Below are positions 10,604 to 51,312 of a stretch of DNA of 64,000 nucleotides, piece by piece; position 1 is the stretch's first letter; the number at the start of each line of letters is the position of its first letter. The stretch is from NCBI GenBank assembly GCA_964187785.1, contig OZ076409.1, forward strand, positions 62,622,001 to 62,686,000, in the 5' to 3' direction. A model generated the notes under the pieces. It ran no database searches. It saw only the letters and a list, made by a program, of their open reading frames with translations, and was not told the DNA's origin. Both the position numbers and the translations under genes were made by a program. This DNA is from Amphiscolops sp. MND2022. Its lineage: Eukaryota.

Positions 10604-10825
10604 TGTTGTATTCTCTAGATCTAAGTTAAGATGGAAAAGAATCAAAGTTATATCTCTAGTTTCAACTGTTTTATATCAAATCAAATTGTACTTGTGTATC
10701 AAATGTAATTTAATGTAGATTGAGTTTGTTAATAAACAACTCTAGTATCTAGACTAGATAGTTTGTAGACCGAATCTCGGTAGAGGTTAAATGGTAGTCT
10801 GGGCCAGTTTGAACCGAATATAACA
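10604..10825 (-). repeat. 3' LTR of the minus-strand Gypsy element
   Basis: Near-identical to 16270..16491 and adjacent to the PPT. Confidence 0.95.
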
Positions 10826-10997
10826 TTTCTCCCCTATTCTTTTCACATCTTTTTCAATTTTGGTTTGAGGGGCCTGGGGTTGTGGATTCTTCTGGGAGAA
10901 AATCCGCTGGTTTTTGTGCTGTCTCGTGTTTCGGTATTCCCTATTCCCTTGTGTCTGGTCCACACGGTACCTGTAATATAAATTAATCATTTATTTT

Positions 10998-13900
10998 CTA
11001 TTCCCAAAAGTTTCCGGTATATGTTATACTGCCGTATCTATTCGGTATTTTGCTTTCTCGGTTAGTTCGTCTTATTTGTGTTTTTGGTTTCTCACCCGTT
11101 ATTTCGCTGTCGGTATGTAATTGTAACGTGTCTTCTTCTTCCGGATTTGTCCGTATTGTCACGTATCTCCCGTCTTTCTCGGATGTGTCGTACACTAATG
11201 GTGTTCCGGCTTCTTCCGGCATTTCTTCGTCTACGTCTTCATCGTCTTCTTCGGTATCACTTTCTGCCCGCTTTTTGTTCGGGACGATTTTCAGTTTGCC
11301 GTTCAGGATGTCCTTGAGGATTTCATCCCACCGGCTGTACTTCCCGTCCAGTCCGCGTATGGAGTGTCGGTTTTTTGTGTTTATTTCGCCGGTTGTGTGC
11401 AAGGCCGGCTCTTTTCTGATTTTTCTCTTGGTCTGAAATAATGGGTCCGAAACAAATTTTCGGTTTAATATTTTTCCGGTATCGGTTTTTATGGTACTCT
11501 CGGTTCCGCTTATGGAGGTTTGGATTTTATTTTGGAATTTTCCTTCTAATGATTTTTTGTTGTAGTTTTTTCAACAAAATGAAAGGGGTTTCTAACCGAA
11601 TTTTTCTTTTTCGGTGACTTTGGTCCGTCGGCGAGGTGTTTTTCCTCTGTCTCCGTTCTCGCCATCACGATGTCATTTGTGATGTCTCCATCTGCATCAC
11701 GGCCCACATAGATTGAGATTTTTGGTTTGTTTGATGCTGAAACAGATAGTTCTGACCAATCAGACAGGTATGATTTTCGTCTTTAACAATATTTGTTAAT
11801 TCGGTTTTCGGTTTTCTACCGTGGTGTAGTTCGAATGGTGTTAATTTTAGTCCGGTATGTATTGTAAATCGCATTACATGTAATGCTCGATTTACACTTT
11901 CGGTTAGGCTTGTGTTGTCTTCCATATTTGCTATAATTAGATTCTTCAGTGTTTGTATTGCTCTTTCTACTGTTCCGATTCCCGTGTGTATTCGGGGGGT
12001 ACAGTATTCGATTTCAATATTTCGGTTTTTGCAAACTTCTCGGTATTCTTTGGAAACAAATGCTCCTCCTTTATCGGATTTATTTTTTTCGGGTATTCCG
12101 TATAAATTAAAGTTACTAGATAAAAAGTTTATGACTTCTTTTGTTTCCGCTGACTTGCAGATTTGCAGATTTTTACGGTTGGCCATTTACTAAATCTGTC
12201 TATCTCTATTAGTATTTGTACATCTCCGTTTATCTTTTTATTGTGTAATTTTTCCGGTAAAATCGATTTGTATTTCTTGGCCGGGTTCGGTTAATTTTTC
12301 TAATTTTCCGTAGTGTTTTTTCGGTATTTGGTAATTAAGGTTTTTACCTGTTGCGAGGTAAGCAGTGCAGTCTTTCACTTTATTCTCGATGTCCTGCTTC
12401 ATTCCGGGCCACCAGAATATTTTGGCTCCTGCATTCATTTTTGTTATTCCGGAGTGACTGAAGTGGATGATGTCTGGGAGTTTTCGTCTAAGGTGGATTG
12501 GCACGACAATTTGGTCGTCTACGAAGACCAGTCCCCATCTTATTGACAGTTTGTCAAATACTGTCCGGTAGCCATCCGGAATTGTTTCCCGGTCTTCTCT
12601 CCTCATGCTGTTTCTGACGCGGGTTAGTTCCGGATCGATGGCTGTTTTGGCAATGAGTGTCTTCAAGTCCATCATGAACTCGAATTCCGCCTTCTTTATG
12701 TGTTCTTCCGTATTTTTCTTGTTGCTAGTCAGTTTCCCCACAATGTGGTTAATTTGGATGTATTTCGCTTCCTTTCCATCCGTGTTGTATTTACTGAGAT
12801 CTACTATAGGTAGATTGTCGCCCCGCATTATGATATTGTCTTCTTCGGTCTCGGCGTTTTCAATTTCCAGCTCGCCTTCTTCCCGTAATTCTTCCGGTTC
12901 GTCTTGTTCTTCGGTCATGGGTTGGTACCCGCCTTCCAGTCGATTCGTTCTCCTCATTATCTGCGCTTTGATTTCAGCCTCCTCTCTACTCCTTTTGTTT
13001 GGTCTTGATGGGGCGAATACTGTCCGTTGTGTGTCTTGGTCGTACCGGCGTCGTAGTGTTCCTGGCCGGGATAGTTGATTTCTTTGTTCGACTAGTCGGC
13101 GTGTCTCTGGGCTGTTGTTCCGTCTGCGGATAATCTCCATAATTTCACGTGTGGCGCCCCAGTGATAGAAGTTTTCGCGATCCATTTCGGTAATTTCCGT
13201 ATTTAATTTTCTGCTCTTTTGAATTTGATTTAAACTTTTAGCCTCTTTCTCTCTCTAGCGTGCTAATTTCGGACTGCCCGGATGTGATTTTCTTATTTCG
13301 TTGGTGTTTGTTCACGTTGTTTTTGTTCTCGAATGTTCTATTTTTCTGTGATTGGTTCGCGCGATTCTCATTTTGTTCTTCGGATGTATTCTTTTTTGTC
13401 TCGGTTTTTGCATTCTCGTGTTTTGATTGGTCGGCGAATTATGGTCCGTATTTTATGTTCAATTTTGCTTGTTCGGATAGTATGTTGATGACGTATTCCT
13501 CGTCGTAACTTTCCTCCGGTGTGGCTCCCCCTACCGGATTTCTACTAAGGTAATCGGTGAATTTCAAGTTATTTCCTGCGATATGTTGTATCGATATATC
13601 AAAATGAGTTGAGCGGTCTAACCATCTTGTTAATCGCGCACTATATTGTTTTTTGCTCCGGCTTCTTTTAATTAATGGTTCTAGTGCTTGATGATCGGTT
13701 AAAGGTGTACCTTTTTTCCGTATAAATAAAATCGGAATTTCTCGAGTCCCCACACTACTGCTAGTAGTTCTAGTTCACCGATAGAATATTTTTTTTCGGT
13801 ATCGTTCAAGTATCTGCTTCCGAATGCTATCGGTTTTGTGTTTCCGTCATCTTGTTTTTGCCATAGTGTTATTCCCAGTCCAGTTGTGCTGGCGTCCGTT

Positions 13901-16214
13901 GTTACTATGTTCTCTTTATCTTTTGCGTAGTGTGCTAAGCATGGGCCTACGGTTAACATTTGTTTTATTTTTCCGAAGTCTTTCTGTTGTTCTTCTGCCC
14001 ATTTCCATGGTTCATTCATTTTCAGTATTTTCCGCAACCGGTCGGTTTGTTCCGAAAGTTTCGGTAGAAATTTTGCCATATATTGTATTGCTCCGAGAAG
14101 TGACTTTAGTTCTTTTGTGTTTTCCGGTGGTTTCAATTTCAGTATTGCTTCTACTTTTTCTTCGTTCGGTTTGATTCCGTTCTCATCGATTCCGTGTCCC
14201 GACAATTTTATCCGGTTCATAAAGAATTCTGATTTCTTTTTACTTGCCCGGTAACTGGCTTTTTCCAGTTTATTTAGGACGTCGAATAGTTTCTTCTCGT
14301 GGTCTTGTCTGCTTCCCCGTGTTACCACAATTATATCGTCCAACCATGCCGGTGTGCAGTATTCAAGTGTTCGGTCGATTTTTTCTTGGAATTTTGTGGG
14401 TAAGTCGGCAAATCTGTAAAACCCTTTTTTAAACCGGTAATATCCGCTGAATTTTCCTCCGGTTAGTGCAAATACGCAGTGTCGGCTTGTTTCTTCTGAT
14501 AGTCTCATTTCACCGTATGCGTAATCCAAGTCTATTTTGGATATGAAAAGTTTTACTGTTCTGTCGCGTGTTATTTCCACCGATATTTGATTCAGTAATT
14601 CTTCCATATTTGGCATATGGGGTCTCATTTTAATGCAACTGTCGTTCAATTTCCTTGAATCTAGCGCTATTTTCACCGACTTGTCGCTTTTTACTGTTAT
14701 GACCACCGGTGATACAAAACAGTCTTCGTCTACATCGTTTATTTTTTCCAAGTGTCCGGATTATATTAGTTTTTCTAATTCCCGTCCGACATCTTCTTGA
14801 AGGTGTAGTGGTGTCGGTCTTGCTTTTTGTTTAACCGGATAGTGTCCTGGTTTTAATTGAATATTTATCTCGGTGTCTTTTATCGTTTCGTTGTTCTCAA
14901 ATAAGTCCGGAAATTTATTGAATACTTTCTCGCGTTCTGATTGGTTGTTTTCGGTCAATTGAATTTTGCTAATTGTTAGTTTGAATTTCTTCATCCAATC
15001 CATCCCCAATAATGGTGTTATGTCAGTTCTTTCGGTTATCAAGATTTCCATTTTCTGTTTGTTGTTTTCGTGTTCGACGTTTACCGGAATGTTCCCCGGA
15101 ATTTTACTTCGTTTTTGTTTACATTTTGATACCGATTTGTTTTTTTCTGTATTTCGGTTGGTTTTGTTATTCTTTCGTCCGGTGGCCTTAATGATATTGG
15201 TGATCCGGTATCAATTATAAATTCTTTTGGTATTCCGTTGATCTTCAGTGTTGTGGTGAAGTGTTTGTTTGTTTCGTCTATTTTCTTTATTTCTTTCATG
15301 TGATGTATGCTGTCTTCGGATTCACTTGATGGTTCGTCCGATTCGTTTGATTCATTTTCGGTTAGTCTTTTCACCGTTCGGTTGTTGTTCATTTTCTGTC
15401 TGCATACTTTTGCGTAATGTCCTTTCTTACCGCATTTGTTACAGTTGGAGTCTAGTGCGGGACATTTATGTAATGGAGTCCAATTTGGTGCATTACAGAA
15501 TCTGCATGTTCGGTTTCCGAAATTTCTGTTTTTCGGTCTTGCACCGAATTTTTCCATTCTCTGGATCGGTTCTTCCTTTATTATTTGATTCTCTTTTGTT
15601 GATATCAAGGCTTCCGGTTTTGTGTTCTTTTTGTTTTTCTTCTCGTACGTGTTCTGCTTGATCAGTTCAGTTATCTTCTTCAGTTCTAGTGTTTTTTCTT
15701 TCATTATTTTGTCCCGTAATTTTTTGTTTGTGATTGCTGTCATATATTTTGATATCAACAATCCTTCTGCTGAATTGGTGTTAAAGTTACATTCTTTTTC
15801 GATTTCGATTAGTCGTCTCCAGAAGTCTTCCGGTGTTTCCTCTTCTGTTTGTTTCGCCCAGAAGAAATCTCCACGAATATGGTATGTATTTATTTTTGGC
15901 ATGTGGAATTCGGTGAATAACTGGATTAAATCTTTCACTTTTATGCTGTCGGGTTCCGTTTTATATTTGGCCCTGTTTATCTGATATAGTGCTTCCGGTC
16001 CCACTCCCCACAAGAAATCTTCTTGTATTGGTTGTTCTTTTGCGGACCATCCGGAATCTGTCATGTTTTCTCCTTTCACTAGTGGTGTGATATCCATCTT
16101 GTGTTCCCGTTTGCAAAACTGCCGGAATCTTTCTAGCCACTGTCTCGGTGTAAATACCGGATTCCCGTCTGTGGCTTTTGCTTCGAGATTTGGGACTGTA
16201 TTTTTCTCTGCCAT
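10998..16214 (-). pseudogene. gag-pol polyprotein, fragmented by several frameshifts and stops
   Basis: Gag with two Zn knuckles (CRFC..H..C, CNKCGKKGH...C), protease IIDTGS, RT (KIDLDYAY, WLDD), RNase H (TTDAS, ELELLAVVWGL, TDHQAL), and integrase (H-H-C region, SDKGGAF, GTVERAI). Split over ORFs 15081..16214, 14761..15051, 13699..14751, 13439..13753, 12238..13185, 11665..12186 and 10998..11402. Confidence 0.93.
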
Positions 16215-16269
16215 TTCGTTTTCAATATTAAGAAGTTTGTTTCGGTTTAAAAAATGGCTGACTGCGCCA

Positions 16270-16491
16270 TGTTGTATTCTCTAGATCTAAGTTAGGATGG
16301 AAAAGAATAAAAATTATATCTCTAGTTTCAACTGTTCTATATCAAATCAAATTGTACTTGTGTATCAAATGTAATTTAATATAGATTGAGTTTGTTAGTA
16401 AACAACTCTAGTATCTAGACTAGATAGTTTGTAGACCGAATCTCGGTAGAGGTTAAATGGTAGTCTGGGCCGGTTTGAACCGAATATAACA
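16270..16491 (-). repeat. 5' LTR of the minus-strand Gypsy element
   Basis: Near-identical to 10604..10825 and followed by the PBS on the minus strand. Confidence 0.95.
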
Positions 16492-27030: not shown

Positions 27031-27795
27031 CCGAAAATGCTGCGATTTTGGTCAGCATTCCACGAGAGAGTAATTGCAGTGTATCACTGTATTCTGTTCT
27101 TTTTATCCTACTCATTCAGTGATATATTTTCGCTCATATGGTTTTTTGGGAAGTTATGGATTATAGGTGCGAAGGTGCTTAACGCAAGGCTTGCGAAGAA
27201 TACTCGTTTGACACAGAATAAATTCAGTATATAAATTATCTATATTTTAAATAGTCTCGAAGATATAGGCAATAGAAAACTAGACTGACTAAAAAATCAT
27301 TTGTTCTTTGATCCGTTTTGTCAAAAAATGCACAAAGTAGCTACTTTAGCGAGTTGAATAATTCCACGAGAGGGACCCAAGAGTACACCATGAAAATGTA
27401 CAAACCATCATGCCACTACTTCGGATGGTTTTTGGAGAAATTATAGCTATTTGTTATTTGTTGAAATTTAGGCTCAAGCTACCAAATTCCTCACGAAAAA
27501 GAAAGACTATGACGGAGCTTGGTTTTGGTCATTTTCCTCCTTTGGAACAGAGACAGTTAAAAAAGATATTTAAGTGGTTGAAACTTTACTGCATAGAGAA
27601 GTGCCTCGGAGATATTACGGCCATGGGAAACTGAAGAGGATAAAAACTTGCATTTGTTGTAAATTTATTTACAATGTACTAGGACGCTACTTTACTGATA
27701 TGGAAATGGTTCCACGAGAAGGCCCTGGGAGTATACCAAGAAAAATGTTCGTCTATTATGCCCGTAGCTCGAATGTATGTGAAGAAAATAGTAGG

Positions 27796-28083
27796 TGTTC
27801 TGAATGGAATTTTATTTGAATTCGATGAATCATTCCTTCAAATAATTGACTTCAAACAAATTATAGTTCAAAATTGTAAAGCATACATGTATCTTGGATG
27901 AATATTTCCCTCGGCATTTTGTAAATATTTTCACATGTGTTTTTTTGTTTTCCCGCATCCTGTGTGTTTCAATTGCTAGACACAAATCTTCCGGAAATAA
28001 TAATTTTTCCTTTTTTAATCATTTTTTGGCTGATGGAGCGGCCTGGTCCGCCATTAGAAAAGTAGGGCTATCGGTGAGACACA
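27796..28083 (+). repeat. BEL 5' LTR
   Basis: ~99% identical to 34612..34899. Confidence 0.96.
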
Positions 28084-28466
28084 TTTTGGTCCGCCATAGA
28101 CCCCGGACTTACGAACTTTGAACTTTCGAAAAGAAACTACTTTTTTTGGAACTTTGTACCAAAAGTTGTCCTTACAAAAGTAACACTCGGTTGTCAAGTA
28201 ACTAATTACCAAGTAACTAACTTGCAAACCCTTCAACCTGCTAGTCTCAACTTCATCCACGATTGATCGTCATTCCCCGGCTAGCTCTTTCCATTTTACA
28301 ACTTAAAGGCATTTCGTTTCTTTTTTCGACGGTGAAAAAACTGTGGATCCCCCTGATAGTTTGTCCTTTATTATTACTTCCTAAAATTTTGGATACAGAT
28401 AGTCACATTTTTACGAAGTCTCTGATCGACCTTCAGCTTACCCCTAGCAAACCGAAAACTTCACTC

Positions 28467-29081
28467 ATGATAAATATTATCGGTGCAAGTTCACTAAAAC
28501 GAGCTTTACAAAACTTGGATTTTGATAACCGAAATACCCTTGGGAACTTTATCACAGCCATTCCTTCTTTGAGCTTGAACCCCTATGTTCAAAGTAATAC
28601 GCTCAAATTGTCTTTTTTACTGGATCATGGTATTCTTACAAATACGAATCAATTAGTTATTTGGCATGACATTCTGAACAACTCCTTGACTCCCCGTAAA
28701 TCAAATAACAATACAGCTCTTACCCCTAAAGAATTAGCAACTGAATTGTTAAAATATAAATCACGTATAACAGCCTTAGTCTATTGTGAACGTATTGGTG
28801 CACCCCATGCATTTGATGATCTTCGTGATCAAGATTTCATTGTTATTCGAGTCACAGAAAATCTTCTTTCTCGTAGAAAACAGAATGATATTCCTCTTTT
28901 GAATGAATATTCCCGACTTCATCCAGTAGCGGATATTGAATTAAAGTCTTTGTTCATTGTTTTGGAGCACCGAAACAATCTTAAAGCTTTATCCCAAAAT
29001 ACAAGAAGTCCCAGCAAGAAACCTTCTCAAAGGAAAAGAAGATTGAAGAAGCTTTTAGAGCAGAGTTTGAAGTCAACTTAA
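28467..29081 (+). CDS. Extra ORF upstream of gag, SGNH/GDSL hydrolase-like (204 aa from ATG 28467; the open frame extends back to 28263)
   Basis: IIGASSL (block I GDS-like), IPSLSLN (block II-like), LVIWHDILNNS (block III-like), YSRLHP (block V DxxHP-like), and a basic C-terminal tail KKPSQRKRRLKK. Intact frame. Confidence 0.6.
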   Translation: MINIIGASSLKRALQNLDFDNRNTLGNFITAIPSLSLNPYVQSNTLKLSFLLDHGILTNTNQLVIWHDILNNSLTPRKSNNNTALTPKELATELLKYKSRITALVYCERIGAPHAFDDLRDQDFIVIRVTENLLSRRKQNDIPLLNEYSRLHPVADIELKSLFIVLEHRNNLKALSQNTRSPSKKPSQRKRRLKKLLEQSLKST

Positions 29082-29226
29082 CGTTAGAAGTTTTTTTATT
29101 TCATCCTGTGAGTTGAGTTCGGTGTGGTCACTGGACGATTAGCTCATCGGTGGCCTATCCGACTTGACTTTGAGGATTATTTACTTTGTTTATTGTTCGT
29201 GATAGTGTTGTATTGTAATCTGAAAA

Positions 29227-32200
29227 ATGTCTGTAACTGAAAGTAGTTCTTCCGTACAACCAGCCACTGAAGATAGAAAACTTACTCGCATCCGAGGTGG
29301 TCACAAAGGTGCTTTCACTAGATTGGAACAGAAAGTTGATGAATTTACGGTCACTGCTATTGACTCTTCAACTGAATTATTTCAAGGTGAAGCTTTGCTG
29401 AAGACATTACAAGATAGAATTGCATTGATTCATAAGTTTGATGCGGAAATTGAATTATTGATAGAAGATGAAGATGATTTAGCCAATGAAACTAGAACGG
29501 AGTTTCATGTTTCTGCTAGTGTTACCATCGCTAGGTTGTCTGCATTGATTGAGAATTACAAAAAAGAACGCGATAGACCTCCGCGTGAGTTTTCCACAGA
29601 CTCTTCTCCATCAAGCTCTGCCACATCGAGTAGATTGAAGTTGCCTAAACTTCAGTTACCAACATTCACTGGATCATACACTGACTGGATGAGTTTCTTT
29701 GACCTATTCAAGGCCTCCGTCGATTCTAATACCCATCTCTCCAATTCAGAGAAGCTGAACTATTTGAAAGCCTGTGTGAAGGGTGAAGCAGCGAGACTCA
29801 TTAGTTCAATCTCGATAACTGACGCAAACTATAATATTGCCTTTGCATTGTTGAAAGATCGATATGAAAATAAAAGGAGCATCATCCAAGCTCATTTGCA
29901 AGCAATTTGGTCGCAGCCGGTTTTGAAAACTGAATCCGCTTTTGGATTGAGAAAACTTCTGGAACTCACCAATGAGCATTTACGAGCACTCGTTGAACTT
30001 GGTCAACCAGTAGAGCACTGGAATGCAATCTTAGTTTTTGTTCTGACGGACAAGATGGATCCAGAGTCACGTAAGCAGTGGCAGCTGGATAATCCTGGCA
30101 CTGAAGTTTTGTCTTGGGAATTATTGTCAAAATTCCTTGACACAAGAAGCCGTGCACTCGAATCGGGTGGCACAAAGGTCACACCGCAACCAAGTGTGAC
30201 TCCTCCCTGTAACCAAGGGAATCAAACTCCGACCAAAAGGGTTCAGAATTATGCTGTTCAAGGCTCATCGTGCGAATCTTGCCAGGAGGATCATCGCCTT
30301 TACGCTTGTTCACAATTCAAAGGAATGTGTCTTGCTGATAGACATAAGTTCATAAAAGACAAAAAGCTCTGTTTCAACTGCTTCCAATCAGGACACTCGT
30401 CTAATAGGTGCCCATCAAAGTTCACTTGTCGTGAGTGCAAAATGAAACATCACACCTTGCTTCATCGACCTCAGAAACAGCTTCCTGATCAACGCACCTC
30501 TACAAAGACTTATTCAAGTATGAATTCGACTTCCAACAAAATGGAGTCTACAAAGCAATTCACCACAGAGCACTTTAGTGCTGACAATGAAATAAATACT
30601 GTTCTTCTTTCTACATCTCTTGTAACAATTCGGAATTCATCGGGAGACGCGATCAAGCTGCGGGCTCTCTTAGATTCTGGTTCACAAACCAGTTTCGTAA
30701 CAGAAGATGTTGCAAAGGCGCTCATGCTGCCAACTCAGCGCAGCCAAATAAATGTTTCTACAATGAGTTCTTCCCATTTCCAAAAAACTCGAGGCTTATT
30801 GCCTGTGAAGTTGAATGATACTATCGAAGTTAATCTTCATCTCATACCAAAAATCTCCAATACCATTCCTGATAAAGAAATTGACGTTTCGACCATGCGC
30901 CATGTGAACAATCTTAACTTAGCTGATCCCACTTTCAACGTTCCTAATAAGGTTGATCTCTTGCTAGGTGCAGATGTTATAGAAGACATTATGCTTGATA
31001 ATAAAATAAAGGACAACGGCTTGTGCATTCGGGATTCCGTATTCGGTTGGGTTGTGTCTGGTCCTGTGTATTCGTCTGGCAGCAACAACGTTGTGTCCCA
31101 CATGACTACCACTCCGAATTGTTACTCTGACCAACTCCTTTTGAAATTTTGGGAAATAGAAAGTGTCCCCGAAACTAGACACTTAAATTTGGATGAGCGT
31201 CGTTGTGAAGAGCACTTCGATAGCACCACAAAACGCAATGAAGACGGCCGTTTTGTAGTACAGATGCCATTTAAAGATGGACCCCACAATTTAGGACTTT
31301 CGAAAGCGAACGCAATGAAGCGTTTCATTCGTCTCGAATACACTTTGCGCCATAATGTCGATCTTTTTCGAAAGTGTTCAGCTTTTATTCAAGAATTCAT
31401 TGACCTTGGACACTTGGAGAAGGTCCAACCCGGGGAGATTAATAATTCTCCGAACTTCTACTTGCCTCATCATTGCGTGCTGAAAGAAGATAGTACAACC
31501 ACCAAATTGCGTGTTGTATTTGACGCTAGTGCTAAAACGACAACGAGTTTTTCTTTTAATGATTGTTTGCTAGTTGGTCCCAAACTTCAAGATGATTTGT
31601 TCAATATTCTCGTGCGATTCCGTTTCTTCAAGATTGCTTTATCAGCTGATGTAGCGAAGACGTATCGGCAAGTTGAGCTGGATAAAGCCGATCGAGACTT
31701 TCATCGGATCCTCTGGAGATTTACAGCTGATGGTCCGGTTGAAACCTTACGCATGACCCGAGTTACATATGGCGTAGCTTCCTCATCGTATCATTCAATC
31801 CGATCTTTGCGAGAATGTGCCAATTTGTCGGAAGTATCCACTGAGGTTCAAAGAGCTATATTGAGAGATTTTTATGTTGATGACATTCTCACTGGAGCCA
31901 ATTCGATCGATGAAGCTCGAATACTCCAAAAGCAATTAGTAGAAACTCTTAAACCAGGAAGATTCGATCTCCGCAAGTGGACTTCGAATGAATCCAGCAT
32001 TATCTTAGACCTTCCGCCCGAGTATCGCGAAGCAAATGATAACTTGGAGTTTTTAGACAAAGACCATACAATGAAAACGCTCGGTATTGTTTGGCAACAC
32101 AGCGAAGATCGCTTCGTTTTTAAGGTTTCCCACATCGAAAAGGAAAACTTTAAAGCAAAGGTCTTGACCAAAAGACAAATGCTCAGTGACATTTCAAAGA

Positions 32201-34503
32201 CTTTCGACCCATTGGGTTGGTTGTCACCAGTTACCATTTTCTTGAAACAGTTAAAGCAAAGGGCTTGGGAAGCAAAAATTTCATGGGATGATCACCTCCC
32301 TTCCGAACTTGCCGACTAATATTTGAAGTGGAGGACGAAATTGATCTCTTTAAAGGATGTGGAATTGCAACGATTTGTATTACTTGATGGATTCTCGGAC
32401 AAGATTGAGTTGCATCTCTTCTGTGATGCATCAGAAAGGGCTTATGCTGCTTGTATTTATATTGTTGCCACAGATTCTCATGGCAGGCGGAAGTCAACCC
32501 TGCTTGTTGCCAAAACCAAGGTAGCCCCCGTGAAAACACAATCTGTTCCGAGATTAGAATTATGTGCTGCTTTGCTAGGCACTAGGTTATATCAATCTGT
32601 CATCAAGTCTATTGGTCAAACGCCAGTTGTTATTGAGAAAACCTTCGCGTGGACTGATTCAACAATAGTTCTGTGTTGGTTGTCAAAAGAACCATCTCGC
32701 TGGTCAACTTTTGTTTCAAACAGAATTAGTGAAATTCAAGGTGAAAACAAATTGAATTGGAATCATGTGTGTTCCGAGGAGAATCCTGCGGATCCTGCAT
32801 CTCGAGGAATTAACCCTGACGAAATAAACCAACATGACCTATGGTGGAATGGTCCGAAGTGGTTACTAACAGGGGCATTTCCGAAAACATTGTCAATTGT
32901 TGAAACATCTGAAGAGATGAAAAAGTCGACTCTAACAACAGGAATTACCAGTCTTCAAACCTCTGTGGCTCACAGGGATACCAAAAAGGATGTTATTGAT
33001 TTGTCGAGGTTTAACTCCTTATACAAAGTCCTCCGAATTCTTGCTTACGCTAGACGTTTTATTGACAAACTGAAGAAGAACGTGGTTGTTTTACCAAATT
33101 ACATTACTGCCCCAGAGTTAACAGAGTCAATCATAATTTAGATTCGCCAAGAACAAATGAAACGATATTCGGAAGAAATCCGAACTCTAGAAATTGCACA
33201 ACAAGTTAAGCCCAAGAGTCAAATCTGCAAATTATACCCGTTTCTCGATAATGGCATTCTTTGTGTCGGAGGAAGATTAGTACATGCAAAGTTGCCCGAA
33301 GAAAGCAAGTTTCAAAGACTAATTCCTCAAGACAGTCACCTCGCACGTCTAATTGTATTGAATTCTCACCAGCTGACACTCCATGGTGGGACTAGTCAAA
33401 CAATTGCTCATATTAGAACTCGTTTCTGGATTCCCAGTTGTAGAAATTTTGTTCGAAAAATGATAATGAATTGTGTCAATTGTAATCGCTTCAACTCGAA
33501 GCCAGTTTTCCCCTTGATGGGAGATTTTCCAACGACAAGAGTTGACCCTCCTATAAAAGCCTTTGAGGACGTGGGCCTAGACTTTGCTGGTCCTTTCTTT
33601 TGTAGGAAATCTCCGAATTCTCTTGAGAAATCCTACCTAGCACTTTTTGTGTGCTTTGCCAGTAAAGCAGTTCACCTGGAACTAGTCTCCGATCTTAGTA
33701 CAGCAGCATGTATTGCAGTCATAAGAAGATTCGTTTCTCGCAGATGTTGTCCCAAAAATCTTTATAGTGATAATGGGTAAAATTTTGTTGGTTCGGATAA
33801 AGAAATAGCAGACCTTCAAAAGATATTAAGGAATGAACACTGTGACTCCTTGCAGGCTGAAGCAGCAGGCTTGCACATCAAGTGGTTCTTCATCCCTCCA
33901 AGAGCTCCTCACTTTGGTGGCCTATGGGAATCAGCAATCAAGTGTGCAAAGATACATCTTCGAAAAGTTATGGGAAACAAAGTTCTGTCCTTTGAAGAAC
34001 TATGTACTCTACTTTGTCAAATTGAAATGATTTTGAATTCAAGACCAATCTGCCCATTATCAGGAGATCCAAATGACGAGTTTTTCTTAACTCCTGCTCA
34101 CTTCTGCTTGGGTGGAAAGTTGGAGAATCTACCTTTGAGCCAAACTACCGATGATTTGAAAAACCCTGACAGTACACATTCACCCACAAAAAGATGGATA
34201 CAAATACAGAAAATGGTCTCTCATTTTTGGAAAAGATGGGTCAAAGAATATGTACTCTCCCTGCAAGAAAGAAATAAATGGAAACTAGAAACTTCTAATT
34301 TGAAAGTTGGTGATATTGTTTTTGTAATTGATGACAATGTTCCCCCACTACAGTGGCCTTTGGCTAAAATCCAACATGTCTAAACCGGCCCAGACAAGTT
34401 TGTGAGAGTCGTAAAAATAAAAACCGCTACAGGAATCTACAATCGACCGGTGCATAAATTGAAGAAAATGTTTGATGCTAATTTCAATGATGAATTCAAA
34501 TGA
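29227..34503 (+). pseudogene. BEL/Pao gag-pol polyprotein in a single frame with 4 premature stops
   Basis: DUF1759-like gag (KLPKLQLPTFTG), three Cys/His knuckles, protease LLDSGS, RT (YLPHH, KLRVVFDAS, FYVDD), Pao RNase H (FCDAS, PRLELCAA, NPADPASRG) and integrase (GLDFAGP, SDNG, PHFGGLWE). Stops at 32317, 33139, 33778 and 34381, all in one frame; natural stop 34501-34503. Confidence 0.95.
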
Positions 34504-34611
34504 CTTTGTTCCCTAACCTTATATATCTTTTACTGTGCCTTATTTTATTGCGCTTGCGTGTTCAACGCTCTTGTTAATTTCTTCCCTGCGAAATCAAGGC
34601 AGGCGGTGTTA

Positions 34612-34899
34612 TGTTCTGAGTGGAATTTTATTTGAAATCGATGAATCATTCCTTCAAATAAATGACTTCAAACAAATTATAGTTCAAAATTGTAAAGCAT
34701 ACATGTATCTTGGATGAATATTTCCCTCGGCATTTTGTAAATATTTTCACATGTGTTTTTTTGTTTTCCCGCATCCTGTGTGTTTCAATTGCTAGACACA
34801 AATCTTCCGGAAATAATAATTTTTCCTTTTTTAATCATTTTTTGGCTGATGGAGCGGCCTGGTCCGCCATTAGAAAAGTAGGGCTATCGGTGAGACACA
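34612..34899 (+). repeat. BEL 3' LTR
   Basis: ~99% identical to 27796..28083 and followed by TSD GTAGG. Confidence 0.96.
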
Positions 34900-37800
34900 G
34901 TAGGTAAATGATTAGGAACTGAACAGTTTCCACAACATTACAATCCTATTCACTGGAATGTGATTCTATTTCATCCAATTGACACTCGTCTCGATACTTC
35001 TGGAGTTGTTGACGCTTATATTCAGGTGGTCAGGCTCGACCTGTCAAGTTTTTTAACAGGAAAAAATTATGTTGGAATATTTAGTCGAAAATACTTTTTC
35101 TACTGGAAAACTTATCGCTTGGCATTAAAGTCATAACTTAAACTCACGCATTTGATAAACTCATCAACCAACGATCCCGCGAAATCCGTGAAAGTCTCAA
35201 TTTGGGGTCAAACAGAATCAGTATCTTCTCTTCTTCAGAAGTGCAAAGCTATCAGAAGTTCAAATCATGAAAGAAACGCCTGGTTTCACGTAATGTGTGT
35301 TATTAATTTTTTCCCAAACTTCATATGGGAAAACAAAAACAACTTTCCAGCGTTGTTTTTACAATTTTGTCTTAAAGTAAATAAATTTGTCTGGAATTTG
35401 CAGATAATGTGTGGGCCTTCGACTAGGGATTGGTCTAGTTTTGCTCTCACCGTCACGTTGTTTCGAAAGGCAACTTTACACAATTTAGTTATTTAGTAAG
35501 TAAAGAATCCAGACTGTTATTTTTTGACGCCTGAAAAAATTCAACACATTACCACGCCACTTGGGGAAAACAGTGACGGCAACAAATCTGTTGTACTCTT
35601 ATGTGGATTCTTCAACTGTATTATAGTACATGTGTTTTCAAGATAAAAGTGGGGTGAAATACTTTTCTGGCTTCTTGCACTAATAGCTGCGTAACTTGTG
35701 AAGAATCGCCAAAAGTAAAATTTCACGAGTTTCTCTTGATTCTTAAAGCTGTGGATTCTTCGTTTGCAAAATTGCAAGATCAATTCCAAATATTTCTAAT
35801 TCCGCAGTTCCAGTTTTTTGCCATTTCTTATACCATTATGATATCATTATACCATATCGTTTTTTTAAAGGTATAATTATGGTGTCTTTTCAATCACAAT
35901 GACTGTATGGTGAATACTTGACACATTTTTGAGTTTTGAAACCTGAAATCATTACAATGAACTGTTATCCACAAATATGAAACACAAAAGGGCCTTTTAA
36001 AAAATTGAGAGTACACACTGGTGAAAAATTCGAAAGAACACTTCATTGTGATGATTCCAGGTTTTCAAAACGGTCAAGAGTGTGACAAATGAATCATAAA
36101 ATTGTAACAAGTATTCACCATAGAGTCATTGTGACGGCACTCGAACAGAGAGATGCAGCAATCGAGAAAAATTTTCAAAGATTTTTTTAGCGGGCAGATT
36201 TATTCACCGGGTCTCTAAAGATGTTGTTTAAGCATATCAAAAGCCATGTATGGGATCGTTCATTGCTTTGAACTGTAGTTCGTTTAGAAGCGGATTTCCG
36301 CCTTTTTTTTAAAAAAAAAAAACAAAAAATCCTCTGAAAAACGAAAAACTGTCACCTCGTGAAATGTCACATACGTAAAAACCACATTGATATTTTTATC
36401 AAACTCAAAATATTGCCGGCGGTACAAAGACGATAAAACCCCACTCATGTTATCGCTCAAGAAGCGAAGCAAGAAATCATTTCTATGTACATTTTTCTTT
36501 ATTTTCCCATACATTCGTTGTATAATTTTTCAGTATAATTTTCTTTTGCATTTTTGTATACTTTCTAAATTTTGTTACTCCCGGCTGCTTTGAACTTGGT
36601 GAACAACCCTCGGCAGGGGTACATTCGCTGATAGTGTCTTGTGTGAGATAGGATAACAAAGCAATCGGCCCAGCACCGCTTGTAACTTCCCTTCATCTTA
36701 TCTGGAAAAAACGGAGAGAATTTTTGAATAGAAGTAACACGTCTTTGAGTCGGTGCCTTGGAAGGTCGTATACTCGTCTAATCTCGGGCCTCTTGACTCG
36801 GCTGATAAGAAGCAACAACGGCCGATAAATTTTTCCAAAGCAAGTTGAAGCTGGAGTTAACATTTTTGAAGATTTTTCCCGCGTTGATAGAATTTTTCAA
36901 GCTTTTTTCCGCAAAGATACCATTTTTCAAGCTTTTCCCGCTCAGATAACGGATGAAAAAAATAGGAGACTCTTGGAATGTCGGTAGATAAGATAGCGAC
37001 AACACCACTGTTATTATTAATGATGGAAAAAAATTCAAAGGAGGAAAGTAAATAAAAACAAAAAGGCCGAGACCAAAATCATGAAGTTACTGAAACTAAA
37101 GCTCAGCTACGAGCAAATGCTAAAATGAAATAGTGACTATCTAGAAGATGACATCTAGATAAATCGACTCCTGGGATTTTTTAAACCTAAAATGGCTTCT
37201 GGCAATGTTCAAAAATGACAATTTTTCAAGGACATCTGCATATGTTGCAAACGTGCGTACAAACGTTGAATAAATAAAATGATGAGACAATTTTTCTTCA
37301 AAAAATGAATTCATTGGATGGATATTAAACATGAAAATATTGCAAAGAACGAAAAAAAATTGGAGAACAATCAGCTGTTTAGTTAACGAATATATTGCAA
37401 ACAAATTGTCAAAAAATTATAAAGCCCCGGGGAAAACAACGCTCAACTAAAACCAAGAGTTCGAAGACTTGGGGCGCTTGGAAAATCATAATAATATGGA
37501 TCATGTCAAGAACAATCTAGATAATGACAAAAATTCCATGACATGCTATGGTTCTTATTAGGAATCTCAGGTTAGTTTATAGTGCTCCGCTAAACACATC
37601 AATAGTACTCGGGAACACAATCTGACTCAGAAATTTGAAAAATAGATGCGAGAGAAGTGTTAGTAACACAAGAAATTTCAGAACGTGAGTTAACCCAGTA
37701 TCAAGTCTGTGGCCGACCTGAAATCCTGATTTAAAAATTTTCACGTGTCCATACAAATGGTGAGATTATCCTAAATGAGCGCAAAAAGGCAGCCAAACTT

Positions 37801-43213: not shown

Positions 43214-46200
43214 TCATAAAGAAGTTATTTGATAGGGGGTACTACGTTGAGACCCCGTTCTTTTAATTGCTGTTTCGAAATCCATTTGATCATCGCTGGC
43301 CTTGTATGTAGTTTTTTCCACTTTTTCCTGTTCGTTTTCTTCTGGGTCTCCCAAATGGAATGCAAAAGTTGGAGAAATTGGTATGAACCGAAATATTTTG
43401 TGGTTCCTCAGGAAAGGAGTGATGAATGGTAAGTCGTACACACTCTTCCCCTCTGCCTGAAAAAAAACCAACAAATCATCATAGTGAGTATCGGCACATT
43501 TTCAGCCACGTCCTAGACTTCAACAATTTTGCTGTTTCTCATGTGTTTTGAAATTTTTAATGTAAAAAGAACGTTGACCACTGAGGGAGTTGGACGAATT
43601 AATATCAAGTTACAATACGTTTCAACTAATTTGAGCATTCCAACGTAGTCAAAAATTTAATTGGTTAGCAAAGTTCGAAATATGGAGATATGGAGAAAGT
43701 ACGTCAGCAACGAAATAATGACAGCAACTCTTGGTTTGCAAAATAAAGCAAATATTCCAAACTATTTTTGCTTTAACTTTTCAATTGACTTTAGAGGCTA
43801 ACAAAATCTTGCTTGTTTGGTTGGTATACCCAGCGCCTATGATGAAACTAATCACACGCTAATTCAGGCTGAAAGGTTTGCTTGTAAATACATCTTTGAG
43901 AGGCATATTCGCGTACGGCAGGAAGACGATTTGTTTTAAAAAGACTATTATGATGGTTGTTTCTAAATTAAACCTTTTAGTGACTTTTTAAAATGTAATA
44001 TTCTGATTTTTATTTGAACTTTAAGTGACTTTCTTTTTTATCAGGTAGTTAGTAAACAACTCTGAGACAATTCTTAGCAAATTCTTTTCTATCACGTTCC
44101 CTGACAATATAAAAGGGGTTACAAGTGAAATGATCAAACTTACAACTAAAATGGTAATAATACAGCCTGTAGTATTTTTGTATGTAAACAAGACGCCCGC
44201 TGAGCAGCGAGATATTTTCCGCCTCAAATGTTCTACAACTAAATAAACTTGAGGCTCAAGAATAGCCAATGCACTATGAAAAAAGTTTGAAAAAAAGAAA
44301 GCTTCGCCCATTTTTAAAGACGACACCTAATTTAATATTTCTGCAATAGCTGCCGTCTTTTTCGTATTTTCGATCATTTCATTTGGTCAAAGAGTACCCC
44401 CTTGGTTTCATAGCTGATTTCGGCTTGAAAAAAGTAGTTTTGCGAGTTGGAACTCGTTTCGCCATCATAGAATTTAAGCGGAAAAATTAAAAATTTGGAT
44501 TTTTTTGTGATTCATGTTGGGGAAAAAGTGGTTTCCTAGTCTCAGGAGTATTTCTTGAGGTGATTTCTGGCACTGAGAAAACGGTAAACGCGTGAAACTA
44601 GGTCCTCTGCAAATTTAGGAAAGTTGAGCGATCCCAGTTTGTTATATTATTGCACATAGTTTCACCAGAAGTGTCAAAAATTGGAAATAGTTTTGACAAC
44701 TTTGGGGTCAATTTGAGGAACTTTTCTAACATGAATCTACAGATGTCTCTTCAAAAATAGGCCTTCTGGACACAGGGTTTAGTGCCTGTTTAGTGCCTGT
44801 TTAGTGCCTTACACCATTCTAACTCACGAAGTAGCTGGAAATATTTTCCTTTGGAAGGTGTACTCCACATGTATTGATTTCGCGTGGATGTTTTGAATAA
44901 TAAATATTGGACAATAAGGTCAGATTTTACGCCTTCAAGTAATGTTTTTGAAAGTTGTGCCAATAAACTTGTCTGATATCTTTCCGAAACACTACACGTA
45001 GCTACACGTTTCAATCATGAGTCTATGGTATTTCTGATAGAAGCGAACATTCGGAACGGTTCGAAATTGGGACAATGTTGTTGAAAATAAAGAACATTCG
45101 GAAACGTTGACTGTTGTAAACTAAATGAACTTCATCCGACGTTTTTCCCCAATGGCGTTTTGAATACCCTATTGTTTTAATGCTCAGGATATTGAAAGTT
45201 CTATTCTTAAAAACGTTTGTGGTTTGAACAACAATTGAATTTAGTTTGTCAAAAAACGTGATTTTTGAGTATTTTTAACCTGATTCCCACAAAACCAAGC
45301 AATTATCTCTTCAAACTTGCCTTCTGGAGATACTTGGATCAGTCATTGTTGAGTTTTTCAAAACATTTTATGCAAGGAAGTAGCTGAAAACTTGTACCAA
45401 AAACAGTTTTTCCAATATTTGGGACATTCTGAGGAATAATTCGACTATAAATTCGCCTATTGTTTGAAAAAAGTGCTTCGGGCCTAGTTTTAACATCTGG
45501 ATTTTTTCGAAGCTTTGTTTTACCGAAACTTTCCAATCTCAAACAATACTTCCCTGGAAATGTCGGAAAGCGACAAACATTTCGACATTTTCGACTATTT
45601 GAGGTCAATTTTGATCCATTCTCCAACTGAAGTCTGCAAATATTCCAATGACAGCCAACTAGATTATGAGTTCAGTCTTTATTGAACGTTTGCCAACATT
45701 CTGACTACAAAACGATTCAAAAAATTCAAAAGTTGCACGGAAACGAAGATGTTGAAGTTTTTCGATTGCTTTGGAGTCATTCTGAGGTGTTTTTGAAGCA
45801 AAGCGTTGCAACCTTGTCTTCAAAAAATGTAATGCAAAGCTCGTTCTTTTGTTGTGGAGTTGATTCCGTTGGAACGTAGAGCAAAATCGCTCGGAAAAAG
45901 TACAGAAATTGCATCAAAAACTTCAAAGTTTTTGACAGTTCAGTGTCAATTTGAGGCAATTTTCTTTTAGGTTGAATTTATCTCGTGACAAAAGCTCACC
46001 GGTACAACAAACTTACCCATGCTTTAGGTGTCTATCGATATTTTGACAAAAATTGAACAAACATAGTGGCAATCGGAAAATTTTCGAAATTTTGACTTTT
46101 TCGATGTCAATTCTGGACAATTTTCGTTTGAAACACTGCTTTGATCTTTTTTCCAAGCATACTGGACAACACATATTTTCTTTCTTGACCCTTTCTAGTA

Positions 46201-49200
46201 TTCCAATCCTCAAAGACTATCAAAAGTTTGGAAAGAAGTGCATTGGATATTTGGAAGTTGAAAGTTTTGAGATTTTTGTCAATTTCGGTGTCAATATGAG
46301 ACATTTTCTTTCAGATCATTGCAATTATCTCTCCATAAAACACTACTGGACAACTGAAAATTTCATTGTTGACCCGTTGAAACAATTCAATTCACAAATC
46401 TGTCGAAACTTCAAGAAAAATTGCATAAAAACTTTTAAAGTTGAAAAATTTTGGGTTTTTTGCATTTTCGGTGTTAATTTGAGTAATTTTCACTTAAAAA
46501 CTGCAATTAACTCTTCGGAAAAGCCTACTGGACAACACACTCTGTCTTTGTTGACCCTTTTCAACGTTGCAATCTACAAAGAGCGTCGGAAATTTGAAAA
46601 AAAATGCATAATTTCTTTGAAAATTGGAAAATTATAGGACTTTTGTCAATTTCAGTGTCAATTTGAGATTTGTTTCATACAGAAAACTGCAATTATCTTT
46701 TCGAAAAACCTACTGGACAACAAACCCATTCCTTTTTTCCCCTTATAACATTCCAATCCACGAAGCCTGTCAAAACTTTAAACAAAAAATTGCATAAAAA
46801 CTTTTAAAGTTGAAAAATTATGTTTTTTTTGCATTTTCGGTGTTAATTTGAGACATTTTCACCTAAAAACTGCAATTAACTCTTCGGAAAGGCCTACTGG
46901 ACAACACACTCTTTTTTGACCCTTTTCAACGTTGCAATTCACAAATGCCGTCGGATATTTGGAATAAAATGCATAATTTCTTTGAAAATTGGAAAATTAT
47001 GGGATTTTTGTCAATTTCGGTGTCAGTTTGAGATTTTTTCAAACAGAAAACAGCAATTATTTTTTCGGAAAAGCCTACTGTACAACAAATTGATTCCATG
47101 TTGAGCATTTCCAACATTCTAATCTACGAAGTCTATCGAAAATTTGACAAAATGTTATAAATCGGGAAATTTTTGGTTTTTTGTCAGTTTTGGGTCTTTT
47201 CATTTTTTAAAAAAACCGCATTTATTTTTTCATAAACAACTACTGGACAACAAATTCTTGCCTTGTGGGACCTTTTCAACATTCTTATCCACAACATCTA
47301 TCGAAAAACTGACAAAGTTGTAATAAAACGTTGAAAAAATTGGAAATTTTTGCAGTTTTTACTAGTTTTGGTGTCATTTTTGGGTCATTCTGGGGTCCTT
47401 GGGGTCAACTAAAAAATTCCAGAAATCTCCACAAATACAAATCGCACGAAGATAAATTTATGTTTGAATTCTATGGGTAAGACTCTTAAAGTTGAATATA
47501 TTTGGTGCTTGGCAATTTTGTAAAAAAAAACCGTTTGATTTAAATATTTTCCTTTCCCGTATGAAATATGGGCGGAAAATAATAAGAAAGGTTGTGTGTC
47601 GAATCGAATTTTTTAATTTGCCTGGTTCAGATACGCTTCATAGTTCAAACCGTTTGCTGGGTAGCTCCAATAACATCTAGATTTTTTGATTTAGGTTGTT
47701 TGTCAGTCACTATTTTTTGATGTTCTGGAGATCTTATCACATTTTGGACGCTGATGCTTGCCAGTTTTCGAAAGTGATCGCTGCTTCTTGCTGCTTCTTC
47801 ACTTCCGAAAGTGAAGGTTTTCGACAGGTTCCAATTGATCGGTGATTAAAAAAAATTGTTTCCACGCTGCTTCAAAGTTTTCCCATTGTTGTGCTGAAGA
47901 TTAAGAGCAGTTTTTAGCGAACATTTTAAAGAAGCTACGTTTGTTGGTTGGATCTGCATTGCTTGAGCTTTCCTGTCGCATCTCGTGATTTCGTAGTTCT
48001 TGCATTCTCAATTGTGGCAAAAATTTATAACATATTTTCAACTGCGTCTTTGCCAGCTAAAACGACTCTTCATTTTTAATACGACTCCTCCAAGGGCGGT
48101 TTTCAAGGGGAGGGTGGCCGCCTGCCCCTTTGGAGAGATGTATGGAATGAATTGATGTCACAGTCGGTAAAATGAGCCGAGTTTTCCTACTTTCAAATAT
48201 TCTCTCGTTACGGTGCGCCCCACATTTTGAAAATCCGCCCAACCGTTGAGGAAATCCTAAAACTACTCCTCGGACAATTTTCTTGATTGAACCGCGGTGT
48301 CGCGGTGAGTTCCTTTGCTTAAGATTTCTCGTTGTCACTAGGGTGGTTATAACTTTCATGTTTTCTACTATAGTTTCAGAAACGAGGATACTTGTTTGGT
48401 GTTACTGACTCGTTTTTATCAGTGGTTCAGTTGATGTCAGTATTTCGGGCACGTATTTTCCAGAAACGTTGACATTGGCTAGTTTTTTCAACTCACCCTG
48501 ACGCTTCCATATTTGTCATTTTGTTTTCGCAACGAAAGTACTACTTTGAAAATTAGCAGCTTCTAATTTGGCTGACCATATAACCCCATTTGGTTAGAGC
48601 ACCTAGTTTCTGGATAGAACGTCGTGGGCTCGAATCCAACCTGCATCAATTATTTTTTGAAATAAAGACTGTTGGTGCGTGTCCTACCTTGTAGGTGTTG
48701 TTATCAGTGTGGACAGACTGCATGTTTCTCCATTTTTTGAGACCCCTGTCTTCCGAATTTCCAGGAATGACGTTGTCCAACAGACATCCGAGGAATCCTC
48801 CAATGAACATGCTGGTTCCCAGCAACACTTCTGTTGCAACACACATCTACCATTAGCTACTTGAAGTGAATTCGGCCAATGTTTTGAAAATCGTGCCAAT
48901 TAAACTTCGAAACAAAAAATTATCTTGCTCCAAAAAAATTCCATGAAACGAGGCATGACATTTTCAAAATCTAACTCTAACCTACTAGGTTAGAGTTAGA
49001 TTTTGAAAATGTCATGCCTCGTTTCATGGAATTTTTTTGGAGCAAGATAATTTTTTGCGAAAGTGTAGTACTAGAAGTGATCATAGTTAAAATAGTTTAC
49101 TACCAAAAATCAATGAAATTCCTTGTGAGATTTTTTCGCAATGTTTTATTCATTCTTAACTGGGTTTGAAGCAATAGTTCGTCGTTGTTGTACTTAAGAA

Positions 49201-51312
49201 ATCAACGAAAAATTACATTCTATCAACAACTATCAACAAAAAGTTAAATAACCAATGACTTGATCCAGCTCGTCGACGCCAGTATCAATAGCTCCTGGAT
49301 TCTGTTTGATCCAGTTGGGGATGGCGAATCCACAGAACAAGGAAAAACCAAGTATGTACAGATTGCGAGTGGAGTTCAAGTTCACAAACTGCAGATTGCT
49401 CAATCCAACGGCGGTTATGATGCCAAACATGCAGAAGAAATTTGCACCTATGACAGGCGCGGGAATGGTAGCAAAGAGAGCCCCCACTTTGGCAAAACAG
49501 CCCAGAAGTATCATCACCAGGGCTCCGAATTGAACAACCCGTCGACTACCAACCTAAGAAAACAATCTCGACTAAATACATATTATTTCAACAACAAAAC
49601 TATGTTTCGACCATTATTTCAAAGTAATGCAAGTAAGAAGTTACATTTCCTTTAATGCAAGTTTGCTCGACTAGCAGGAAATGTTTCTCAACTGCGCATG
49701 TATCTCAAGAAAGAGACAAAAAGAACGAAAACTGTTTTTATTATACTTCTTTCAAAGATCTTTCAAAAAAGTAATATCATAGAAGTACTGTTCCATTGAA
49801 ACTTGAGGGAATGCAATTTTTTGAGACTATAGACTATGAACTTGAGAAACTTCAAGTTGACCCCCGATGCTTTTTTACTCTCAGTAAACAAAGACTCAAT
49901 ACATACTAACCCTTGTTATCCCCAACGCTCCAATATTCTCACTGTAGGAAGTAGTCCCGTTGCCGGTCCCAATAAGTCCTGCGAATAGACACCCTAGTCC
50001 CTCTATGAGGATACCCCTGTTTATGGCGGGCACAGTGGGGGTGGGCGCTCCTGAAAAACGAGCACAGGGAAAATAGTCTCCCACCGACTCCACTATTCCA
50101 GCTAGCACTCCAGCCAACATGCCGAATACACCTGCTACTGTTACCTGAAGCATACTCACTTGGAAGTCAGTTTTCAAGAAACTTCAAGTCAACATTTTCT
50201 GGAATACCGAAACGGTGTCTGGACATTTGCAAATGACAGGGAATTCTTACTGAATCAATAGTCGAATGGCTAACTAGTGAAATTTGAAGTGATCATTCTT
50301 TTTACTCAGTAGATCAGTATTATAAAAATAGTGAATACGGTTCAGTAAGAAATGCTGGATCTTGTCAAAACGTTGGGGTAATCGAAAATTCTTTTGTAGA
50401 AAACGTTATGTAACAGACGAAACGAATAACAATCGACATGACTCATTCAAGGAGAAAAAGAATTGCTAAAGTAAACTACAACAAGAATTGCTAATAACTG
50501 CAATTAATGAATTTTAGTCAATATTTGTGTCCGAATAGTTTTCAAAGGAAAGCCGGAAATGCTGAGAGCACGTCTATAATGAAAATCCACTTCATTTCTG
50601 CAATCTTTGATAAAATGGAGTCTAAAGTTAGTTCAACTGCGATCGTAAATAAGAACAATAGACTTTGTACCATATTTTTGCTTTCCTTAAAAACTAAAAG
50701 CACGCTAGTTTGTCTCATTCTAAGGATCTAAAATATTGTTTTCCATTCAAACACTATGGAATATTTAACTGTTCGTGGTATAGTGCCAAAAAAGTTTGAA
50801 AAGCGAAGCTGAAAATGAAAGGAGTACTGACCTTAGGTTCACCCCATTGACACGGATAGGGGAAATAAAACCAGTCGGAATCTTGGAGTACATCTGACCT
50901 CAAGTCAGTTCTGGCTCTGTACCCGTTCTTGCTACTGTTGTCAGTAATGACCCCAGATTCAGTCAGAATAAGACATAGCACCCATGAGCAAATCATTCCC
51001 AAAACAACCGGAAATAGTTTGAACACTCTGACATTGAAAATGCCAAATTCAGATATAACTTGAGAAAACACCGTAATGCAGATGATTCCAAAAAAGGTAA
51101 TGCCCCAGTTAGAACTGCCATAAAAGGCGGCTGCCTCAAAGAGAGATAAGCCAATCAGAGTGATTGAAGGAACGACCGTCAGAGGGCCAATGAACCGAAG
51201 TAGGAATCCGACTCCACCACAAGCGCCGAGGAAGATTTGGAAGAGAGATGAGACAATAATTGCACCTTGAACTTCCACTATTCGGTCTTGCCACACATTT
51301 TTGTATCCTGAG
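43214..51312 (-). CDS. SLC23A: SLC23-family (NAT/NCS2) nucleobase-ascorbate transporter, last five coding exons; 5' exons not found in window
   Basis: Phase-compatible GT-AG exons 51312-50832, 50144-49911, 49553-49253, 48830-48688, 43456-43214. Motifs: [111 protein letters not shown]. Confidence 0.93.
44186..47582 (+). mobile_element. Long (~3.4 kb) non-autonomous Helentron/HINE-like element in an SLC23 intron
   Basis: 5' AAACAAG start with subTIR ATTTTCCGCC (~44214). 3' hairpin CCCGTAT..ATATGGG overlapping the complementary GGCGGAAAAT (47571-47580). Internal ~180-bp tandem array at ~46050-47390. Homologous to 55923..59773 and 22827. Confidence 0.7.
48913..49057. repeat. Perfect palindrome: 72-bp arms, 1-nt spacer
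   Basis: 48913..48984 is the exact reverse complement of 48986..49057. It lies inside SLC23 intron 48831..49252. Confidence 0.97.

Follow-up and report, generated by a model that had tools for sequence, protein, structure and literature searches.

The 64-kb window analysed here (64,000 nucleotides [nt] of contig OZ076409.1 of Amphiscolops sp. MND2022, whose first letter is position 1) contains a BEL/Pao retrotransposon that carries an additional open reading frame (ORF) between its 5' long terminal repeat (LTR) and gag. Within a clade of BEL/Pao retrotransposons this ORF is conserved as an accessory gene, and its relatives also precede ORF1 in long interspersed nuclear elements (LINEs). The reading we favor, and consider probable, is that of a gene family shared by BEL elements and LINEs that encodes a protein predicted to have an SGNH-hydrolase fold, is likely bypassed by leaky scanning, and likely supplies a slow esterase or lipid binder by which the ribonucleoprotein of the element reaches membranes.

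The accessory frame runs from stop to stop over 28245-29081 (+), 278 codons. Its first ATG, at 28467, corresponds to the start Met of diverged relatives, so that the protein is most likely 204 amino acids (aa) long. An earlier note on this DNA had recognized an ORF in its own frame, separate from gag-pol, and a 145-nt spacer before the gag-pol ATG at 29227 confirms this; the start it gave, 28263, is a TTG codon. An in-frame GTG at 28332, with A at -3, would add 45 residues (28332-28466) with a hydrophobic stretch, and the frame over this extension is open in several sister copies. We set aside extensions from the TTG or the GTG, as they are absent from diverged families.

The protein almost certainly folds as an SGNH hydrolase, in agreement with the earlier proposal. 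Its predicted model is a flavodoxin-like alpha/beta/alpha SGNH fold, and the top structural matches include an O-acetyltransferase and acetylesterases. The motif blocks that had first drawn attention (IIGASS, WHDILNNS, RLHP and a basic tail) were all found, the tail (residues 178-204) having a net charge of +9. Conservation was counted over 110 family members. Block I begins at residue 6 and its Ser is S8 (104/110), chosen by strand register, with the adjacent S9 (85/110) as the alternative; block III provides H67 (104/110) and N71 (92/110), and block V provides H152 (107/110). Position 34, in block II, is Gly in 94/110 and Ser in the window ORF and its clade; it varies in solved SGNH members too (PMC10792757). 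It is reasonably probable that Ser8 and His152 form a catalytic dyad and that Asn71 belongs to the oxyanion hole. Other conserved polar residues are D68, N72, R109, S135 and E158, alongside H67. The protein is stand-alone and basic, without a coiled coil. Searches of Pfam, NCBIfam and PDB by sequence or profile gave no credible match, and weak matches to actin, TPR_ZFYVE26 and KaiA_N were rejected as inconsistent with the model. An Atlas search found no match for the window protein; for its relative P0125 it returned SGNH/GDSL-named clusters at 0.85-0.87, a lead only.

Unnamed relatives are numerous: 35 clusters with a single query, 255 by profile (120 listed) and, separately, 497 representatives at E<=0.001 (150 listed). 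The window ORF's own 90% cluster has 79 members; among the 15 listed, 9 are full-length, 2 begin only after residue 16 and 4 are truncated, and broken copies are under-counted because such clusters contain called ORFs only. When 352 family proteins were tested, 18 extended into the leader of the window element and 2 into the spacer, P0037 reaching the gag start. Sister copies therefore have the same ORF-gag arrangement and, with linked clusters in other BEL families (see below), the ORF is present in sister copies and very probably in related families, which supports the earlier note's reading of an accessory gene. Related hosts carry intact copies of the family; members of the clusters P0036, P0012, P0125, P0138 and P0160 lie on many short contigs of other assemblies. 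Among viral contigs, neither the ORF nor the polyprotein had a relative, and a single 22-residue match in prokaryote genomes (E 1e-3) was taken as chance.

The window element is a BEL/Pao LTR retrotransposon by its LTRs, its target-site duplication (TSD) and its polyprotein domains. It spans 27796-34899 (+), with the following features.

27791-27795 (no strand): 5' TSD, GTAGG, the same 5 bases as at 34900-34904
27796-28083 (+): 5' LTR, 288 nt, TG...CA, 3 differences from the 3' LTR
28087-28104 (+): site resembling a primer-binding site (PBS), TGG 3 nt past the 5' LTR
28084-28466 (+): leader without ATG, its frame open for 74 codons 5' of the ORF's ATG
28467-29081 (+): accessory ORF of predicted SGNH fold, 204 aa, between the PBS-like site and gag
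29082-29226 (+): ATG-free spacer, 145 nt, between the accessory ORF and gag-pol
29227-34503 (+): BEL/Pao gag-pol polyprotein, 1758 codons, no env; ATG at 29227 with A at -3
34596-34606 (+): purine-rich tract resembling a polypurine tract, before the 3' LTR
34612-34899 (+): 3' LTR, 288 nt, pairing with the 5' LTR
34900-34904 (no strand): 3' TSD, GTAGG, matching the 5' TSD

The LTR pair and the TSD uphold the placement of the ORF inside an LTR-bounded element. The polyprotein is a single gag-pol with the domain order of the BEL/Pao type: DUF1759, protease, reverse transcriptase (RT), Peptidase_A17, integrase and DUF5641. DUF1759, Peptidase_A17, integrase and DUF5641 were above the Pfam cut-off; the protease and RT matches were weak. 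An exact look-up of the polyprotein in the protein collection found none, no near-identical cluster was returned, and named relatives are <=36% identical. The PBS-like TGGTCCGCCAT (28087-28098) recurs near the 3' end of each LTR (28040-28054 in the 5' LTR); the 64-kb window has 0 tRNA genes and thus offers no candidate primer for comparison. The leader also has three AAGTAAC donor-like sites, at ~28178-28217. One run of reads yielded three 151-nt contigs on the element, none bearing on splicing.

This copy is not intact. The four premature in-frame stops already ascribed to the polyprotein lie at 32317, 33139, 33778 and 34381; they are TAA and TAG codons, and related families have intact polyproteins, for which reasons an alternative genetic code was set aside. 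The earlier note had pointed to the survival of the ORF beside a broken polyprotein. As an argument for selection this proved uninformative: with 4 stops in 1758 codons, the chance that an ORF of 204 codons escapes them is P=0.63. The window ORF departs from the family at position 77, conserved in 95/110 members, and is therefore probably decaying along with the rest of the copy.

Beyond the window's own family, matched contig sizes indicate that the ORF is very probably linked to three other BEL families. We matched the sizes of contigs bearing ORF clusters to those bearing polyprotein clusters, comparing 163 ORF entries in six groups with 107 polyprotein entries (8 clusters and 14 single representatives); the P0357 cluster, matches on contigs under ~10 kb and matches from named genomes were left out. 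For polyprotein cluster P0366, 8/12 contigs matched ORF group B in size. P0360 matched all 3 known group C contigs (3/10 of P0360) and, in 1 further case, the family of the window ORF. P0359 matched P0079 once (1/11), the contig in question bearing an intact polyprotein of 1737 aa, and group B once as well. From the off-target rate, 0.02 matches would be expected per 12x12 cell. Identities of ORF and polyprotein were 85% vs 88% for the pair B-B' and 49-55% vs 52-58% for the other five pairs.

The same family occurs in an unrelated class of elements, a link that the earlier note had missed, as it had the shortage of start codons described below. A metagenome scan gave 12 loci, in which tblastn found no BEL sequence. 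In seven of them (L002, L003, L007, L008, L009, L010 and L011, with L009 and L011 being one family) a LINE-type ORF1 lies behind the SGNH ORF in the same orientation and, where the contig extends, endonuclease and RT come next; the remaining 5/12 lack usable context. ORF1 gave weak PHD-like matches in L008 and L010, an endonuclease (APE) was found in L002, L003, L007 and L010, and RT in L002 and L007. Their architecture suggests CR1/L2-like elements of the Jockey superfamily, the clade name following from that architecture (PMC4120745). Between the window protein and that of L007, identity is 30% across 195 residues. As three-ORF LINEs (SGNH ORF, ORF1, endonuclease-RT), L002, L003, L007, L008, L009/L011 and L010 are arguably more striking than the BEL case. 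We built a quick IQ-TREE tree of 80 rows (62 dereplicated members by id order, the loci and named groups), which is unrooted and has 70 rows of no known element context. Its 4 BEL-linked rows fall in an 8-row group (SH-aLRT 98), and its 6 LINE-linked rows are scattered through a deeper 38-row group (support 92). Because the LINE-linked diversity is deeper, a transfer from LINE to BEL is mildly favored. The description of the gene as "captured" holds insofar as the family is common to both kinds of element.

How could an additional ORF precede a structural gene without silencing it? The family is strikingly poor in Met: beyond the start Met, only 38 of the 20,860 residues in the 110 members are Met (0.18%) and 81/110 have zero, compared with 1.07% in BEL gag, 1.58% in BEL polyproteins, 1.45% in LINE ORF1 and 1.64% in LINE ORF2. 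Six lineages of the BEL-containing clade, ~50% identical, have 0 Met in 1,211 residues (7.5-11 expected, discounting shared ancestry), and the window ORF has no internal in-frame Met. Six LINE loci (L011 omitted as a duplicate, L010 without its 5' end) have 3 ATG and 59 CAT between their first start and that of ORF1, against an expectation of 47.9 ATG. Position -3 of the first start is a pyrimidine in 5/5 LINE loci and in the window (C), and in 8/10 loci overall; ORF1 or gag starts have a purine in 6/6 and in the window (A). Rice tungro bacilliform virus (RTBV) and the badnaviruses use leaky scanning with the same pattern, and a short internal ORF did not block the downstream gene there (PMC5902531). 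Such statistics make leaky scanning highly likely in the LINEs; in BEL, leaky scanning with re-initiation after short out-of-frame ORFs is only somewhat favored. An in-frame AUG would, we infer, be doubly costly, since ribosomes would be drawn into a long ORF and its product would lack Ser8, and the in-frame Met constraint may persist in BEL for this reason. The ATG-free leader was discarded as a signal in itself, since 4.9 ATGs are expected by base composition and only 2.2 by dinucleotides, which is not significant.

We propose the following mechanism. A fraction of ribosomes would initiate at the weak ATG at 28467 and make the basic 204-aa SGNH protein, and the remaining ones would scan past, re-initiate after short ORFs and reach gag. 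The protein would bind acidic membranes and element RNA via its basic surface and tail, its Ser-His dyad would slowly hydrolyze an acyl ester, as proposed for ZfL2-1 ORF1p, and it would thus bring the element ribonucleoprotein to membranes. The translation step is likely given the sequence statistics, and the biochemical role is likely purely by analogy, which also holds for the membrane targeting raised in the earlier note; within that role, binding of membrane and RNA as for ZfL2-1 ORF1p stands slightly below an even chance. More speculatively, the gene could be a portable cassette: with a weak start and cleared of AUGs, it could be placed before any retroelement structural gene without blocking translation. 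Within a single animal lineage it could have passed from one class to the other, LINE or LTR, making tricistronic LINEs and supplying membrane targeting in trans, as retroviral matrix or envelope do, possibly aiding cell-to-cell spread.

Several observations weigh against a conserved esterase-type gene read by leaky scanning. Five polyprotein clusters (P0361-P0364 and P0386; 60 contigs) and the 14 representatives matched no ORF group, ORF group D (19 contigs) has no polyprotein partner, and equal size indicates the same contig, not adjacency of ORF and polyprotein. Loci L001, L004 and L005 also contain ATGs. The window ORF holds 7 out-of-frame ATGs, opening ORFs of 3-31 codons of which the last ends at 28929, where 13.2 are expected by dinucleotides (P 0.05) and 6.1 by codon shuffling. 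Finally, the triad Asp (DxxH) is absent from block V. The out-of-frame ATGs, the three donor-like leader sites and a T-rich stretch before gag would suit a protein such as we propose in elements whose BEL gag-pol is translated from a different RNA, one that lacks the ORF through splicing or internal initiation. We regard this as possible but doubtful, as the in-frame Met is still missing across the six divergent lineages (0 vs 7.5-11), the weak and strong start contexts are retained, and the splice-site matches are weak. An ORF that is a neutral passenger, or that only attenuates translation while its protein is irrelevant, would fit the decayed window copy and the related BEL clusters without a linked ORF. 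Yet catalytic-type residues are kept at 30% overall identity, multi-copy intact clusters occur in many families and the ORF diverges in parallel with gag-pol, making this very improbable.

The missing Asp bears on what the protein does. Some solved SGNH members, e.g., the active 1ESC group, lack it too (PMC10792757 Table 2); the Asp is therefore not superfamily-defining, and E158 (100/110) may substitute for it. The earlier note had raised RNA binding, with the non-catalytic Oskar OSK domain as a precedent; a catalytically dead fold of this kind could serve as RNA chaperone or packaging factor. In OSK (PDB 5A4A), however, Ser, Asn and His are gone (PMC10792757 Table 2), whereas the window family retains them as S8, N71 and H152, and gag CCHC and LINE ORF1 already supply nucleic-acid binding in both element types; we thus find it unlikely, even with the Asp missing. 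An active deacylase could instead act in trans on a host target (an acylated protein, lipid messenger or glycan), modulating the host or countering its defenses rather than forming part of the particle. An ORF that stands alone, lacks a coiled coil and is of use to retroelements of two unrelated classes would agree with this, as would the conserved polar residues beyond the dyad, which suggest a specific substrate, and the O-acetyltransferase and acetylesterases among the top folds. But no target is known, a common fold shows no function and the ZfL2-1 esterase showed no peptide deacetylase activity, so this too seems improbable.

Compared with known systems, the family probably works like other retroelement esterases, and its architecture places it outside the ZfL2-1-type ORF1 family. 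SGNH esterases are described as ORF1 in CR1, L2, RTEX and Penelope-like elements (PMC3905857; PMC4120745). The type IV ORF1p esterase of ZfL2-1 and of CR1, L2 and RTEX elements (PDB 4C1B) shares with our family the SGNH fold, the basic character and the 5' position in a retroelement. The spacing of the blocks agrees, with the correspondences GDSIV/GASSL, FPGARV/IPGLSL (most relatives) and HVGTND/HDILNN. H67 matches the block III His of ZfL2-1, H191, with the same spacing to Asn, a His described there as transposon-specific; it also occurs in 1ZMB and is thus not diagnostic. C107 (74/110) may be the counterpart of ZfL2-1 Ser228. In ZfL2-1 the esterase is ORF1 itself, behind a coiled coil and with a DxxH triad, whereas here it is a separate ORF besides gag or a PHD-type ORF1, without Asp or coiled coil. 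The window family protein has no sequence match to 4C1B, which, with a domain-swapped crystal, was not among the 50 matches listed in either of two VIA runs, an absence that rules nothing out.

A further parallel is offered by the bdelloid Vesta LTR elements and Athena/Terminon elements, with an extra SGNH (GDSL) ORF3 in unrelated classes of one host lineage and without coiled coil or transmembrane segment (PMC5408684). In Vesta, of rotifers, ORF3 stands beside gag (ORF1) and pol (ORF2) and is shared with Penelope-like Athena elements (also PMC6431247); ours lies 5' of gag in BEL/Pao and is shared with APE-type LINEs, and its start-codon signature is not reported for Vesta in the passages covered. 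Other element-borne SGNH genes are reported to follow the tyrosine recombinase in Ngaro (PMC9210276) or sit in a DNA transposon, Helitron (PMC4021074). Accessory ORFs ahead of a structural gene are known from RTBV/badnavirus ORFs I-II, with weak starts and cleared internal AUGs before a capsid-RT polyprotein; these are plant pararetroviruses with unrelated proteins, and the window copy is only partly AUG-cleared (PMC5902531). They are also known before gag, on the unspliced LTR transcript, as sORF1/sORF2 of the MDG1 group, which are FAST-like membrane proteins of 70-110 aa in Ty3/Gypsy, not enzymes (bioRxiv 10.1101/2025.03.14.642691). Among the matches listed in the full-text literature, a scope that leaves out most subscription papers, supplements and Repbase, there was no esterase in BEL/Pao and no separate AUG-poor esterase ORF before LINE ORF1; PMC13524379 does not mention esterase, SGNH or GDSL.

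Esterases recur in unrelated mobile elements. With this family, BEL/Pao elements join the list and so does a new arrangement, the esterase as a separate first ORF; the family is also a clear example of a gene common to LTR and non-LTR elements. As a small stand-alone protein, it can be assayed apart from the functions of ORF1p. The Met/ATG depletion points to three-cistron translation by leaky scanning in LINEs, a mode described for plant pararetroviruses, and gives a simple signature by which upstream ORFs that lack annotation could be found in other retroelement sequences.

The rest of the window contains other repeats and one piece of a host gene. A decayed Ty3/Gypsy-type element (10604-16491, -) has 222-nt repeats (97%) and pieces of gag, RT, RNase H and integrase; within it, 12241-13254 encodes a 338-aa segment in which a long acidic insert precedes the integrase zinc finger. 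Long ORFs of 689, 414 and 266 aa, in a GC-richer stretch at 1476-5741 (-) and 6747-7544 (+), have no Pfam match; they lie downstream of an integrase C-terminus (1-1226), and a second LTR element may carry them as accessory ORFs in antisense. Degenerate repeat arrays of ~183-nt period occupy 46030-47317 and 57353-59518, and a perfect 72-nt inverted repeat with a 1-nt spacer lies at 48913-49057. An exon-like piece at 50757-51404 (-) belongs to a host xanthine/uracil/ascorbate permease gene (Pfam PF00860, E 1.8e-20).
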